Assembly (NCBI RefSeq): GCF_988243305.1
Contig: NZ_OZ547136.1
Reading direction: 5' to 3' (one strand)
Length of the DNA stretch: 64,000 bases
Positions 31,872 through 37,139 of this stretch are shown here, in pieces (position 1 is the first letter of the stretch; the number at the start of each line of letters is the position of its first letter). The notes below the pieces were generated by a model. The model searched no databases, was not told the DNA's origin, and saw only the letters and a program-made list of their open reading frames with translations. Made by a program: the position numbers and the translations under genes.

Positions 31872-33032
31872 ATGACAAATAACCCTCTGATTCCACAAAG
31901 CAAACTTCCACAACTTGGCACCACTATTTTCACCCAGATGAGCGCGCTGGCGCAGCAACACCAGGCGATTAACCTGTCGCAAGGCTTTCCTGATTTTGAT
32001 GGTCCGCGCTATTTGCAGGAGCGGCTGGCGTACCATGTTGACCAGGGGGCAAACCAATACGCGCCTATGACTGGCGTGCAGGCCTTGCGCGAGGCGATTG
32101 CTCAGAAAACGGAACGTCTGTATGGCTATCAACCGGATGCCGATAGCGATATCACCGTAACGGCAGGGGCGACGGAAGCGTTATATGCAGCGATTACCGC
32201 ATTGGTGCGCAATGGTGATGAAGTGATCTGCTTTGATCCCAGCTATGACAGTTACGCGCCCGCCATCGCGCTTTCGGGGGGAATAGTGAAACGTATTGCA
32301 CTGCAACCACCGCATTTTCGCGTGGACTGGCAGGAATTTGCCGCATTGTTAAGCGAGCGCACCCGACTGGTGATCCTCAACACCCCGCATAACCCCAGTG
32401 CAACTGTCTGGCAGCAGGCTGATTTCGCCGCTTTGTGGCAGGCAATTGCCGGGCACGAGATTTTTGTCATTAGCGATGAAGTTTACGAGCACATCAACTT
32501 TTCACAACAGGGCCATGCCAGCGTGCTGGCGCATCCGCAGCTGCGTGAGCGGGCGGTGGCAGTTTCTTCATTTGGCAAGACCTATCATATGACCGGCTGG
32601 AAAGTGGGTTATTGCGTTGCGCCAGCGCCCATCAGCGCTGAAATTCGCAAGGTACACCAGTATCTGACCTTTTCGGTGAATACCCCGGCACAGCTGGCAC
32701 TTGCGGATATGCTACGTGCAGAACCTGAGCATTATCTTGCGTTACCGGACTTTTATCGCCAAAAACGCGATATTCTGGTGAATGCCTTAAGTGAGAGTCG
32801 GCTGGAGATTTTACCGTGCGAAGGCACTTACTTTTTGCTGGTGGATTACAGCGCGGTTTCTTCGCTGGATGACGTTGAGTTTTGCCAGTGGCTGACGCGG
32901 GAGCACGGTGTAGCGGCGATCCCGCTGTCGGTATTTTGCGCCGATCCCTTCCCCCATAAACTGATTCGTCTCTGTTTTGCCAAGAAGGAATCGACGTTGC
33001 TGGCAGCAGCTGAACGCCTGCGCCAGCTGTAG
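31872..33032 (+). CDS. ybdL: PLP-dependent aminotransferase (methionine aminotransferase)
   Basis: 386 aa; class I aminotransferase; PLP-lysine region SFGKTYHMTGWKVGY. Confidence 0.85.
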   Translation: MTNNPLIPQSKLPQLGTTIFTQMSALAQQHQAINLSQGFPDFDGPRYLQERLAYHVDQGANQYAPMTGVQALREAIAQKTERLYGYQPDADSDITVTAGATEALYAAITALVRNGDEVICFDPSYDSYAPAIALSGGIVKRIALQPPHFRVDWQEFAALLSERTRLVILNTPHNPSATVWQQADFAALWQAIAGHEIFVISDEVYEHINFSQQGHASVLAHPQLRERAVAVSSFGKTYHMTGWKVGYCVAPAPISAEIRKVHQYLTFSVNTPAQLALADMLRAEPEHYLALPDFYRQKRDILVNALSESRLEILPCEGTYFLLVDYSAVSSLDDVEFCQWLTREHGVAAIPLSVFCADPFPHKLIRLCFAKKESTLLAAAERLRQL

Positions 33033-33662
33033 TTATTTGACAGTCCAGGCACGGGAATATTGACGGTCGGCAAACAACTCTTGCAGGCCATTAATTTGTT
33101 TCAGGCGCAGCACCTCGTCGCTGTCCATTCCCAGCTCTTTGCCAATTTTATTATCGTCCCATCCCAACTGGCTGAGTTCACGGACGATTTCTGACATGGC
33201 AGTGATTTGGTGACGTCCACGGGCGCGATTATGACGAATAGTCGCGGCGATGCGTTGATTACGCGTACCTTCCAGACAGGTCACCGGCAAATAACCTTTT
33301 AAGCGTAATTTTAACGATGATGAGCCTTTACCAATTTCATGGCGGTGAAAACCATCCACGATTTCCAGGGCATTTTTATCCGTATGCGTGACCACAATGG
33401 GTTGGGTAAAACCATCTATTTCAATGGATTTTTTCAGCAGTTTTTTTTCGGGTGGTGCCACGTTGTTTGGGTTGTAATCATTAGGCATAAGTTGGCTGTT
33501 TTTAACCCACAGAACGCAATCCACTGGCTCTTCTCGAAAGGGGCTAACCTGATGGATCGCCATGCGGATTTCATTAATCGCTTTGATGCGATCGTCTTCC
33601 GGCAAGCTGGCGAGAAATTGGGTTAAATCCTGCGTTAATCGTTGTTGCATAGTATCCCCCAT
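33033..33662 (-). CDS. ybdM: ParB/sulfiredoxin-like domain protein
   Basis: 209 aa; DGxHR-type motif in IVDGFHRHEIGK; 28-bp overlap with ybdN. Confidence 0.8.
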   Translation of the reverse strand: MGDTMQQRLTQDLTQFLASLPEDDRIKAINEIRMAIHQVSPFREEPVDCVLWVKNSQLMPNDYNPNNVAPPEKKLLKKSIEIDGFTQPIVVTHTDKNALEIVDGFHRHEIGKGSSSLKLRLKGYLPVTCLEGTRNQRIAATIRHNRARGRHQITAMSEIVRELSQLGWDDNKIGKELGMDSDEVLRLKQINGLQELFADRQYSRAWTVK

Positions 33663-34855
33663 TCCTGACGTTTTCCTTTTATTCGTTCGTTATAACGCTG
33701 ATAGTTCTTCGCTTTGGTCGGGCTAAATGATAATGCCCGACACCAGTAATCGTTATTGAGTAAAACTTTGCATATTCGCCGCCAGGAGGGGATATCTTTC
33801 GCGCCAATGTCCCCTTGCTGGGTTTGTGGAACCTCGATGCCTTTTTTCTGATACCAGTGCAAATAAATGGCGATTTTATTGCGATAATGCTCAGCTGTTT
33901 TCTCCGGCATGCTGTTGAGTAGCAATAATGCATACTCCTGCCAGTCTAAATGTTCGGGCTTGAGGATTTTCCGATGACCATAAAAATGGTTGTCATGTCC
34001 GGCGTAAATGCCGCCACTTTTTACCCCGCTGACTCGTGCGCACATAGCAGCCCAGCGATCCGGTTCGATAACGTGATAGAGCCATAATCCTTGCCGTTGT
34101 TCCGGACCAAAAGGTTCGCAAATTCGCATATGACGTAGAGGAACGCCTGCCTGATACATTATATTATACAGTGGGTTACAGAGGCGTTGATGGCTAGCAT
34201 ACCAGGTCCAGATATCAGCGACTTTCCAGTCGTAGATGGGGTAAATGTACCAGCTATGACCGCCTGGTGCGGCAGTGGTCCAGGGCTTATCATCGGCAAA
34301 ACGTTGTTTATTTAAACTGGCGATGGCGACAAAACGGTTGTAGGACTCATCCGCACGGATGCCGATCATCATCGCCGCCGGACGTTTTTGTGAAAACCAT
34401 TCGGCAAACTCACGCACAAATTGTTCGAAGGTCATGCCTGGCTGGTAAAAGGAGAAAAAGTCAGGATCGGTTATCGCATCTTGCGGAGGCTGACGTACCC
34501 ATTCGACATCAGGTTCCCAGCACTGCCATTCGGGTTGGTATTGTGATAGGGAATTTTGCGTTGTAAGCGGGAGCGCAACCCAGTAAAACTCTTCGATGAC
34601 ATCGGTGTACAACTCGCGCAGGGACTGAACATAGTTAATGGTGCAAGAGAACTGAGCTTCCCAGTCGATAAATAAAACACAAATTTTTTTGCCCATTTGT
34701 CGGGCAAGTTCGGCGGTCAGATGCAGCATTAATCCGGAATCTTTACCACCCGAAAAAGAAACGCAGACGCGGGGTAGGGTGTTAAGTGTCCAGGTAATAC
34801 GTTCTTTTGCAGCTTCCAGAATATTCAGTGGAAGCGGGATTTTATAAATAGACAT
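33635..34855 (-). CDS. ybdN: PAPS-reductase-like PP-loop ATP pyrophosphatase family protein
   Basis: 406 aa; PP-loop motif SFSGGKDSGLM near the N-terminus. Confidence 0.8.
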   Translation of the reverse strand: MSIYKIPLPLNILEAAKERITWTLNTLPRVCVSFSGGKDSGLMLHLTAELARQMGKKICVLFIDWEAQFSCTINYVQSLRELYTDVIEEFYWVALPLTTQNSLSQYQPEWQCWEPDVEWVRQPPQDAITDPDFFSFYQPGMTFEQFVREFAEWFSQKRPAAMMIGIRADESYNRFVAIASLNKQRFADDKPWTTAAPGGHSWYIYPIYDWKVADIWTWYASHQRLCNPLYNIMYQAGVPLRHMRICEPFGPEQRQGLWLYHVIEPDRWAAMCARVSGVKSGGIYAGHDNHFYGHRKILKPEHLDWQEYALLLLNSMPEKTAEHYRNKIAIYLHWYQKKGIEVPQTQQGDIGAKDIPSWRRICKVLLNNDYWCRALSFSPTKAKNYQRYNERIKGKRQEWGILCNND

Positions 34856-35001
34856 CTGAAAACGCTCTCTGAACGTTACGGGGTGACTCGTGAGATGAAT
34901 CCGCTAATTATAGGGTAAACGAAGCAAGATAGAGCACATTATTTTATATTCACACAATGAATCAATTGATGCGTAATATAACATTTATCAGTGGTAATAA
35001 A

Positions 35002-35904
35002 TCAGAAGCTATCATTTAAACGATCTATGAATCGTGAGAAGACAAGGTTGTTCAACGAAGCCTTGTTATAGGAAATATAAAGTTTAACCGCAGGAAGTGG
35101 TTGTTCCAGTTTTATCTCTTGTAACTTCAAAAAATCACGATGTAAATCGTACAGTTCGGTGGGCACAATGCCCAATAAGTCAGTAACAGAAATACTATTA
35201 ATTATCGTCAACAAAGAAGAACTGCGAAATGAAACTTTACGGTTCATAAAACGTTCATCTATGTCCATTTGAATTTCGTCAATCCCTGCTGATTTAGATA
35301 TCAACAAGGTGAATTCTTCGGCGATAATTTGTTCATAGTTACTGGTATCGGTAATACGAGGATGTTTGTTGCTACATATAAGAGAATTGCGAATAGTATG
35401 TAACGGCATGCAGATGACAGAGCGGCTAATTACTGGTTGTAGTGTAATTGCCAGGTCAGTTTTGCGTTGAACCAACAGTTCTTCGGCATTTTCAGCTGAA
35501 AGCAGTATGTCATGGCATTCTATATCGATTGAAGTATCTTGTCTAAGACAGCGGATTAGCATGTTGTTATTAGTACAAGAAATAAGCTGAGGACCGTAGA
35601 TAATAAAATTTTTCTTTAGCTCAGACTTATTAACAATATTGATCGTTTGTTCAAGGCCTCTGAGATTTTTCTCAAGATGATGATGCAGATTTAACCCTGT
35701 CGTAGTCGGCGCGATACCTTTCCCTGAGCGAATGAATAACGGGTCATTAAATTGCGCACGTAAACGTTGTAACGACTGACTAACAGCAGAGGGCGTTATA
35801 TATAATGATTCTGCTGCTTTGCTAATGCTGAGGTGTTGATAAATGCACTCAAATATGACCAGTAAATTCAGATCAAATTTTTTTAGGTCATAAAGATTCG
35901 CCAT
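35002..35904 (-). CDS. ybdO: LysR-family transcriptional regulator
   Basis: ORF 35002..35940; start MANLYDLKKFDLNLLVIFE (300 aa); N-terminal HTH; AT-rich gene. Confidence 0.8.
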   Translation of the reverse strand: MANLYDLKKFDLNLLVIFECIYQHLSISKAAESLYITPSAVSQSLQRLRAQFNDPLFIRSGKGIAPTTTGLNLHHHLEKNLRGLEQTINIVNKSELKKNFIIYGPQLISCTNNNMLIRCLRQDTSIDIECHDILLSAENAEELLVQRKTDLAITLQPVISRSVICMPLHTIRNSLICSNKHPRITDTSNYEQIIAEEFTLLISKSAGIDEIQMDIDERFMNRKVSFRSSSLLTIINSISVTDLLGIVPTELYDLHRDFLKLQEIKLEQPLPAVKLYISYNKASLNNLVFSRFIDRLNDSF

Positions 35905-36111
35905 AACATACTCCGTTATATTATCTCTTCTATAAATCATTCATTTGTTCAATAATGTTGCTGTTGTATTTATTTGTATTATGTTTTTTTGCTTAACTCA
36001 GAATTAAGTTTTTCTAAAATAGCACAGCCACTTAGGGCAGAGCGAGCAATTCATGCTTTTTTAGGATGGTTGAAAAACAGGGATATATTTCAACCATCCA
36101 TGAATTATCTT

Positions 36112-36858
36112 TTATTTATTCCCCATAATGATATTAAGCGTTTTCTGATCGGGCAACCCCACGGCCTGTTGCAGTGTATTTTCCTTACTCATGTAGTAGA
36201 TAGCTGGTGTGACATTTGCCCCCAGATCGTCCATGAGTTTCTCGTTGTCGCTTAACACTTTCATTTGCTCTGTACTTACGTTTGCAGGCACGTTTAGCTT
36301 AAGCTTGCCACCAGAGGCTTCATATTCTTGCCAGGTTTTTGCGGGATCTTTGGCGGCAAGAATTGCCGCTGCTGTCGCCGGGCTTTCTGGCTTGATAACC
36401 CCAACCAACAATGTTCTTAATTGCACTTTGCCAGAATCTACCCACGGGCGCGCCTGCTGCCAGAACTGTTTACAATATGGGCAGAACGGATCGGCGAAGA
36501 CGTAAACAATGACCGGCGCGTCTTTTTTACCGTCGAGGAGCCAGTGGGATTGTTCCATCCGTTGCCACATTTCGCGTCCGGCTGGTGCGTAAATTTCTTT
36601 TTCGATAAGTGTGTTACTCAGGTTTTCACCTTTCTCGTTGTACATGTAACCAGAGATAGCGTGCTTACCATCTGGAGTCAGGTAGATGGTGACGCCCATA
36701 TCCTGATACTTTCCGAGATAACCTTTCATTCCTCCGGGGGCATCGAACGTTTTGATGATTGTAATGCCCTGTTTTTCAATCGCTTTTACTGGAGCGGGAA
36801 GTTCCTCTGCGAAGGCGATTGCAGGAAGCAGAGCCAGTAAAAGTATCTTTTTTAACAT
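36112..36858 (-). CDS. dsbG: Periplasmic thiol:disulfide isomerase
   Basis: ORF 36112..36918; start [17 protein letters not shown] (signal peptide); thioredoxin-fold active site CPYC. Confidence 0.9.
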
Positions 36859-37139
36859 TAATTTGTCCTTTTCAGTCAGTGCAAAAGTCGGGTAAAAGGC
36901 ATAACCTATCACTGTCATAGGTAAGAGCTTAGATCAGGTGATTGCCCTTTGTTTATGAGGGTGTTGTAATCCATGTCGTTGTTGCATTTGTAAGGGCAAC
37001 ACCTCAGCCTGCAGGCAGGCGCTGAAGATACCAAAGGGTAGTTCAGATTACACGGTCACCTGGAAAGGGGGCCATTTTACTTTTTATCGCCGCTGGCGGT
37101 GCAAAGTTCACAAAGTTGTCTTACGAAGGTTGTAAGGTA

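Follow-up and report, generated by a model that had tools for sequence, protein, structure and literature searches.

The ybdN–ybdM pair of Escherichia coli belongs to a mainly phage-borne IbrA/IbrB family and may act as a two-protein adenylating module

The genes ybdN and ybdM lie in a 64,000-nucleotide segment of the Escherichia coli chromosome (contig NZ_OZ547136.1 of assembly GCF_988243305.1; hereafter the window), in which the gene order is cstA–ybdD–ybdH–ybdL–ybdM–ybdN–ybdO–dsbG–ahpC. The features of the pair and of ybdO given below are all on the minus strand. The ybdN coding sequence (33635..34855) is an open reading frame of 406 amino acids for an IbrA-type PP-loop enzyme, and ybdM (33033..33662) encodes an IbrB-type protein of 209 amino acids with a ParB/sulfiredoxin (Srx) domain and a helix-turn-helix; their AlphaFold2 models have a mean predicted local distance difference test score of 93.8 and 84, respectively. 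The two genes share 33635..33662, the 28-nucleotide overlap on which the original prediction, made from the bare DNA letters, had based a suggestion of translational coupling. A second in-frame ATG of ybdM at 33650 is preceded by a Shine–Dalgarno-like GGGGGA run; starting there would shorten the overlap to 16 nucleotides and yield a YbdM of 205 amino acids, which is the length of the Citrobacter orthologues. The pair is flanked on one side by ybdL, which scores 708 bits (cutoff 420) with the methionine aminotransferase model NF006569, and on the other by the LysR-type repressor gene ybdO, also called citR (35002..35940), for which the CitR model NF047710 gives 453 bits (cutoff 400); both neighbours had been correctly named from the outset. 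With a GC content of 0.37 for ybdO and 0.47 for ybdN and ybdM, against 0.516 for the whole window, ybdO and ybdNM form an AT-rich island.

YbdN has the adenine nucleotide α-hydrolase fold of the phosphoadenosine phosphosulfate (PAPS) reductase type. Residues 30–234 (34154..34768) match the PAPS_reduct domain (Pfam PF01507, 2.4e-13) and are followed by a DUF3440 domain at residues 237–383 (33707..34147; PF11922 at 5e-23 and 2e-6, phrog_15645 at 9e-86), which is all-helical and of high confidence in the AlphaFold2 model and for which a sequence search found no solved homologue. Comparison of YbdN gave values of 15.5 for the PAPS domain of human FAD synthase, 15.4 for APS reductase, 14.4 for CysD and 12.3 for TilS, and the nearest solved relatives in a profile-to-sequence search were CysD (1e-10) and FAD synthase. 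The PP-loop SFSGGKDSGLM, read from the translation and from conservation across 74–77 family members, spans residues 33–43 (34727..34759), with S35-G-G-K-D-S40 kept in at least 92% of the family. D64, E66, D214 and Y230 are invariant throughout the alignment, and both the G165xRxxES..R174 motif and a Trp-rich, family-specific insert (W110, W113, W119 and R121) are nearly so. YbdN carries an intact ATP-pyrophosphatase signature along with these family-specific residues.

The same alignment contains no conserved cysteine: the best column reaches 50%, and Cys403 of YbdN falls in a column with a gap in half of the sequences. CysH uses a catalytic cysteine near its C terminus, of the ECGLH type, which YbdN lacks, and a CysH-type thiol mechanism is therefore excluded. 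The NCBIfam scores of YbdN against models for CysH, CysD and FAD synthase, at 24–37 bits, fall far below cutoffs of 154–397; for CysH they are 34.1 bits against 254.2 (TIGR02057), 33.3 against 154 (NF002537) and 23.8 against 165.1 (TIGR00434). Unlike CysD, YbdN has no CysN partner. Given the missing cysteine and these sub-cutoff scores, the RefSeq name 'phosphoadenosine phosphosulfate reductase' is a label for the domain and not for the function.

A similar conclusion holds for DNA phosphorothioation. Like DndC with DndB, and like SspD and BrxP, the pair joins a PP-loop enzyme of the PAPS reductase fold to a protein of the ParB/Srx superfamily with a DGxHR-type motif, and this resemblance, pointed out in the original prediction, holds at the level of the superfamily. 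It does not extend to the features that define DndC and DndB. The hallmark of DndC is a 4Fe-4S cluster held by three cysteines together with a cysteine dyad (PMC10853773), and both are excluded in a family that conserves no cysteine; YbdN carries the DUF3440 domain instead. YbdN scored 21.7 bits against the DndC model TIGR03183 (cutoff 290.4; E value 8e-5), and PADLOC returned only weak partial matches to DndC (2e-5), BrxP (1e-4) and the ParB region of MTase_II (7e-4). For YbdM, which bears only a generic DGxHR resemblance, no DndB model was matched in NCBIfam (E ≤ 0.01) or PADLOC (E ≤ 0.1), and neither the window nor the conserved neighbours of 80 viral loci described below include genes for DndA, DndD, DndE, SspB, SspC or a desulfurase. 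The missing cysteines, sub-cutoff scores and missing partners together rule out a DndC/DndB-type identity beyond the superfamily, and a Dnd- or Ssp-like phosphorothioation that borrows a housekeeping cysteine desulfurase, largely refuted by the lack of cysteines, is barely credible.

YbdM has the N-terminal fold of ParB. Its ParB/Srx-fold nucleotide-binding domain covers approximately residues 46–150 (33213..33527) and is followed by a helix-turn-helix at approximately residues 153–198 (33069..33206) that resembles sigma region 4 and LuxR/GerE. The original prediction had quoted VDGFHRHE, which is found at residues 102–109; within it, DGFHR (residues 103–107; 33342..33356) aligns with the box II GERR of ParB and Noc, and box I and box III positions likewise correspond. 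Srx, SerK and DndB typically carry DGxHR-like motifs. Among 48 family sequences from phages of several phyla, 24 positions are invariant, including N61, N64-P65-N66, E72, D103-G104-x-H106-R107 and T141..N145.A147.G149.H151. The helix-turn-helix contributes G178, E183 and Q189 to the invariant residues, and the element as a whole is near-invariant from actinobacterial phages to E. coli.

YbdM shares this fold, the three boxes and the subsequent helix-turn-helix with ParB, Noc, KorB and VirB, but differs from ParB clamps in several respects. Its box II reads DGFHR rather than GERRxR, its scores are low (15.8 bits against a cutoff of 58.45 for TIGR00180 and 20.4 against 315 for TIGR04285), and the AlphaFold2 model ends about 10 residues past the helix-turn-helix with no C-terminal dimerization domain evident. 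In addition, there is no ParA gene nearby, and exact k-mers revealed no parS-like site. Similarity of YbdM to the ParB/Srx phosphotransferases sulfiredoxin, SerK and SbnI is marginal in sequence (E values from 6e-4 to 0.35); these differ from YbdM in partner enzyme and gene context, and the position of the catalytic cysteine of sulfiredoxin is Phe105 in YbdM. ParB/Srx proteins can act as regulators: KorB and VirB regulate transcription, and SbnI is a further case. DndB has likewise been described as a ParB/Srx regulator (PMC10853773). Outside its own family, the best PHROG and PADLOC matches of YbdM, by match coordinates, are to ParB-like regions in families that carry a DNA methyltransferase annotation.

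Other architectures of the IbrB core were also seen (L065, 7271–8275; L071, 7290–8189; L036, 4800–5990). The core can be joined at its N-terminal side to an HNH endonuclease or an ectoine-synthase-like cupin, and forms of 375–416 amino acids have a C-terminal extension of about 170 amino acids with conserved Cys, His and Trp, in which no Pfam domain was matched.

Both proteins have full-length matches to phage families, YbdN to phrog_2302 (1e-76) and YbdM to phrog_2159 (4e-69). Homologues occur in 224 (YbdN) and 226 (YbdM) GenBank phage records, with the same counts for both proteins in the main host groups (Flavobacterium, 90; Mycobacterium, 60; Streptococcus, 21; Arthrobacter, 12; Bacillus, 8), and the carriers include lytic as well as temperate phages. 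We collected 80 IMG/VR loci with a YbdN profile, of which 79 were informative and one was cut by a contig end. A YbdM homologue lay adjacent to the YbdN homologue, on the same strand and in either order, in 75 of the 79. The start and stop codons of the two genes usually overlap, by 4–22 nucleotides in phage and plasmid homologues. In four solo YbdN loci (L073, L074, L075 and L076), searches that included a family hidden Markov model found no IbrB-like gene in the fetched flanks of up to 6 kb per side. No natural YbdN–YbdM fusion was present among the 150 best family representatives, in which the extensions of longer proteins were unrelated or artefactual. The family is compact, with only 218 clusters matching YbdN below 1e-30 in a representative library of 1.84 billion proteins, and it is mainly phage-borne and of phage origin. 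Obligate pairing, overlapping start and stop codons and strong conservation together favour one machine of two subunits over an enzyme that has a casual regulator.

Phage copies of the pair are found in the module for DNA replication and recombination, where their neighbours include SNF2 and DEAD helicases, DnaB, primase, YqaJ and PD-(D/E)XK exonucleases, GNAT proteins and DNA methyltransferases; no third gene is conserved beside the pair in the 80 viral loci. This setting bears on the possibility that the pair covalently modifies DNA or RNA, with YbdM loading onto the nucleic acid and YbdN adenylating a base carbonyl or backbone oxygen that an amine or other non-sulfur group then replaces, so that phage or plasmid DNA would be protected from restriction and any effect on transcription would be secondary. 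The occasional proximity to DNA methyltransferase genes is consistent with such a role, as are the methyltransferase-family matches of YbdM, the conserved W110, W113 and W119 of the YbdN insert, and a conservation across phyla that suits a substrate found everywhere, for example DNA or RNA. However, the survey of viral neighbours linked no restriction, reader or base-synthesis gene to the pair, and a core chromosomal copy with a dedicated repressor would be odd for a system that marks its own DNA. That no unusual nucleoside is known in the DNA of E. coli K-12 also counts against modification, although the operon is silent in the laboratory. On balance we regard a protective modification as unlikely.

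The phage neighbourhoods also bear on a role in DNA packaging, as a small-terminase-like recognition protein, or in partition. In Gadjet and other mycobacteriophages of the Pipefish type, the large terminase gene comes immediately after the pair, and its start is overlapped by the ParB-like gene. The annotated recurrent neighbour clusters of the 80 viral loci comprise helicases, exonucleases and an acetyltransferase but no terminase, and neither packaging genes nor ParA lie near the chromosomal and plasmid copies. A packaging function would also leave the PP-loop enzyme without a role, and we consider it highly improbable.

The closest known relatives of the pair are IbrA and IbrB ('immunoglobulin-binding regulators'), co-activators of the prophage eib genes in E. 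coli ECOR-9. They have the same two-gene architecture, in which a protein of PAPS_reduct and DUF3440 domains precedes a ParB-like partner that has a helix-turn-helix. The kinship drawn in the original prediction is borne out by the full-length PHROG matches and by RefSeq, which names YbdM an 'IbrB-like domain-containing protein' and a 74%-identical orthologue of YbdN an 'IbrA family prophage gene co-activator'. Unlike ibrAB, ybdNM is a core chromosomal copy with its own LysR repressor and has no adhesin gene adjacent. The sole phenotype known for the family is the switching on, in trans, of silent adhesin genes carried by prophages; it belongs to IbrAB, and a corresponding activity of YbdNM is suggested by analogy. 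As summarized in PMC7649339, Sandt 2002 reported enhanced Eib expression when ibrB is present in the genome, and in Shiga toxin-producing E. coli ibrB adjoins perC (PMC7649339). In a Ralstonia rprR mutant, IbrAB and the adhesin RadA rise together.

Plasmid copies adjoin genes of the same kind. A paralogous pair of about 58% identity is present on 855 plasmids (including 323 in Klebsiella, 204 in Escherichia, 129 in Ralstonia and 123 in Shigella), among them Klebsiella virulence-type plasmids, Shigella pINV and Ralstonia megaplasmids. We examined eight plasmid loci (L091, L092, L093, L095, L096, L097, L005 and L098), seven of which are enterobacterial IncF contexts. In these seven the pair lies one to three annotated genes from virulence genes; in six contexts these code for adhesins, autotransporters or fimbriae, and in the seventh for siderophore systems. 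The contexts hold a YadA-like gene with a serine protease autotransporter of Enterobacteriaceae (SPATE); the fec and iro siderophore loci; an inverse autotransporter with a type IV pilus; a chaperone–usher fimbrial operon; an autotransporter; HyxB with a SPATE; and the F4 fimbria with cdt and cnf2. The pair lies close to the YadA-like gene on one plasmid and autotransporter genes on others.

Two further features of the plasmid copies were observed. Genes for EAL-domain proteins recur near the IbrAB-like pairs, and on Shigella pINV an IS2 element destroys the enzyme gene while the ParB-like gene is intact.

On the chromosome, both ybdN and ybdM were found in 5,420 of 5,426 complete E. coli genomes, with a coding region that is 95–99% identical in most of them; the notion of unusually divergent alleles was dropped, as the apparent identity of 90–95% stemmed from the flanks. 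Compared with a Citrobacter-like orthologue, the proportion of nonsynonymous differences (pN) is about 0.11 and that of synonymous differences (pS) 0.64–0.77, near saturation. The low pN against a near-saturated pS indicates that both genes are maintained by selection; ybdN and ybdM are real genes under purifying selection and not chance reading frames. Chromosomal copies occur across the Enterobacteriaceae, and the order LysR–ybdN–ybdM recurs in another enteric bacterium (L086). Listeria also has a core pair, lmo1309/lmo1310 (PMC7020466).

The ybdNM query matched 7,851 places in the 5,420 E. coli genomes, up to five per genome, and the approximately 2,400 extra, more divergent copies are presumably ibrAB islands and prophage copies. 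Three candidate routes to an ibrAB island were rejected. The record 'Escherichia phage ECO95 1-6-1' (L004) contains a ybdL–ybdM–ybdN region that is about 75% identical to every E. coli genome and probably derives from another enterobacterium; P0006 proved to be the LysR–ybdN–ybdM locus of another enteric bacterium; and the K99B plasmid copy is a degraded ibrB remnant on only 11 plasmids.

CitR represses the pair. Chromatin immunoprecipitation with exonuclease digestion (ChIP-exo) placed a CitR peak upstream of citR–ybdNM, and deletion of citR raised ybdN by a log2 value of 5.5 and ybdM by 2.5 (PMC9068703). In the citR mutant, 86 genes changed, and citR–ybdNM was the only CitR ChIP-exo peak with an expression change (PMC9068703). 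All of the CysB sulfur-starvation regulon rose in the deletion strain, as did citCDEF and the flagellar regulon, and CitR was not found bound at these genes (PMC9068703, Table 1); part of these changes may lie downstream of YbdNM.

The response of the CysB regulon in cells with derepressed ybdNM could be accommodated if YbdN were an independent small-molecule adenylyltransferase, or a protein that binds PAPS or adenosine phosphosulfate, with a metabolite or nucleotide as its substrate, and YbdM a mere auto-regulator or sensor of the operon in the manner of DndB and SbnI. The nearest solved relatives of YbdN, CysD (1e-10) and FAD synthase, both adenylate small molecules, and the small-molecule ParB/Srx kinases SbnI and SerK are structural neighbours of YbdM. 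Nevertheless, phages retain just the two genes, inside modules of DNA metabolism, and the survey of viral neighbours found no transporter or other metabolic gene linked to the pair. An auto-regulator should co-vary with its site, whereas the helix-turn-helix of YbdM is invariant across hosts and no conserved site was found; the DUF3440 domain would also be left unexplained. We therefore judge a metabolite-directed function distinctly unlikely.

In published work, the YbdM protein rose 29-fold in the presence of a CTX-M-15 plasmid, its over-expression slowed growth by 10%, and deletion of ybdM changed fitness by 1–2% (PMC8764527); the Keio ybdM mutant is resistant to the peptide N-104. The slower growth, the tight repression of a two-gene operon in an AT-rich island, and the flagging of Listeria lmo1309/lmo1310 by TASmania through guilt by association (PMC7020466) would fit a toxin–antitoxin or abortive-infection pair that acts in anti-phage defence. 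Yet phages, lytic and temperate, carry the pair themselves, its two products are enzymes of high conservation that evolve under purifying selection, and no PADLOC model rose above noise. The small effect of deleting ybdM (PMC8764527) is also unlike that of losing an antitoxin, and neither this effect nor the slower growth resembles toxin–antitoxin behaviour. A toxin–antitoxin or defence function is very unlikely.

Taking these lines of evidence together, we favour a reading, with a rough probability of 0.4, in which ybdNM is the chromosomal enterobacterial copy of the mainly phage- and plasmid-borne IbrA/IbrB module, with YbdN adenylating at a nucleic acid to which YbdM directs it and so de-silencing acquired genes. 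An intact PP-loop without any conserved cysteine points to cleavage of ATP between the α and β phosphates with adenylyl transfer to oxygen. The ParB/Srx pocket with its helix-turn-helix, the methyltransferase-family ParB-like matches and the phage DNA-metabolism context point to a nucleic acid as the site of action. CitR, encoded next to the pair, keeps ybdNM nearly silent in E. coli. According to this model, YbdM, once produced, would bind nucleic acid in a nucleotide-gated manner, form a physical complex with YbdN, and bring YbdN to that site or switch it on there. YbdN would convert ATP to AMP and pyrophosphate, with AMP placed on a substrate oxygen, and the adenylated substrate would then be attacked by a non-sulfur nucleophile that displaces AMP. 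TilS, GMP synthase and NAD synthetase use chemistry of this kind; a plain adenylyl transfer, which CysD and FAD synthase perform, would be the alternative. By analogy with IbrAB, the module would turn on, in trans, otherwise silent genes that were acquired horizontally, for example those of prophages, adhesins and autotransporters.

Several observations weigh against this reading. The link to adhesin genes derives from seven contexts, and the plasmids concerned abound in genes of this type; the flagellar change of the citR mutant was seen in a ybeF mutant too (PMC9068703) and hence may be a strain artefact. A helix-turn-helix that is near-invariant across phyla is unexpected for an operator-specific regulator. 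In a search of 74 viral loci for a shared parS-like word near the pair, exact k-mers, which have low sensitivity, returned only an A/T-rich background like that of distant flanks; an invariant helix-turn-helix with no common DNA word fits a classical operator-binding factor poorly. A universal partner of YbdM could be generic DNA, RNA polymerase, a stable RNA or the DUF3440 domain. Moreover, de-silencing cannot have been the ancestral function, since not all of the phage hosts have silencing of the H-NS type. Finally, the papers available to us contain no biochemical study of any YbdN or YbdM family member that shows activity, complex formation or DNA binding, in keeping with the original prediction that no activity had been established and with a description of YbdM as 'completely uncharacterized' (PMC8764527).

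The remaining features of the locus concern its control and its neighbours. The ybdO–ybdN intergenic region (34856..35001) measures 146 nucleotides and contains a single weak sigma-70-like site from 34965 to 34938; in a scan of the ybdNM locus for promoters and terminators, the numbers of sites did not exceed those of shuffled controls. The ybdO reading frame from its first ATG encodes 312 amino acids, and both the CitR model and the Citrobacter-like orthologue begin at residue 13 (MANLYDL...), which places the true start probably at 35904. At the other end, the stop codon of ybdL (ending at 33032) abuts that of ybdM (33033–33035), so that the two convergent genes are separated by no intergenic bases and terminators have no room. 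The ybdL–ybdM arrangement has been catalogued as a convergent 'excludon' (PMC12288877). In the dsbG reading frame (36112–36918; 268 amino acids), about 20 residues precede a typical signal peptide, and translation probably does not begin at the first ATG.

Both the genes and the domains they encode were already known from the literature and RefSeq, as were the relationship to IbrAB and the repressor, and the novelty claimed for ybdNM was to that extent overstated, with repression by CitR already published (PMC9068703). The placement of YbdN in the PAPS-reductase-type PP-loop fold and of YbdM in the ParB/Srx fold held under profile and structure searches. What our analysis adds is the exclusion of sulfur chemistry, a count of the pairing in phages, the derivation of the family from phages, the link of plasmid copies to adhesin and virulence loci, the near-invariance of the YbdM helix-turn-helix across phyla and the lack of a third conserved gene.

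ybdN and ybdM are among the remaining y-genes of E. coli without a function, and have relatives in hundreds of phage genomes and on 855 plasmids. With the PAPS reductase name and the phosphorothioation analogy ruled out, the chemistry is narrowed to a cysteine-independent adenylation. More speculatively, and with considerable doubt on our part, the IbrA/IbrB family as a whole might be a hitherto undescribed, sulfur-independent, ATP-dependent two-protein modifier of nucleic acids, the covalent mark of which phages would use in replication and which enterobacteria and virulence plasmids would have co-opted as an epigenetic switch for silenced foreign genes. If the pair does control adhesin or prophage genes enzymatically, acquired virulence genes would have a regulator of a new type, and an enigmatic pair of genes that is widespread in phages would be accounted for as well.

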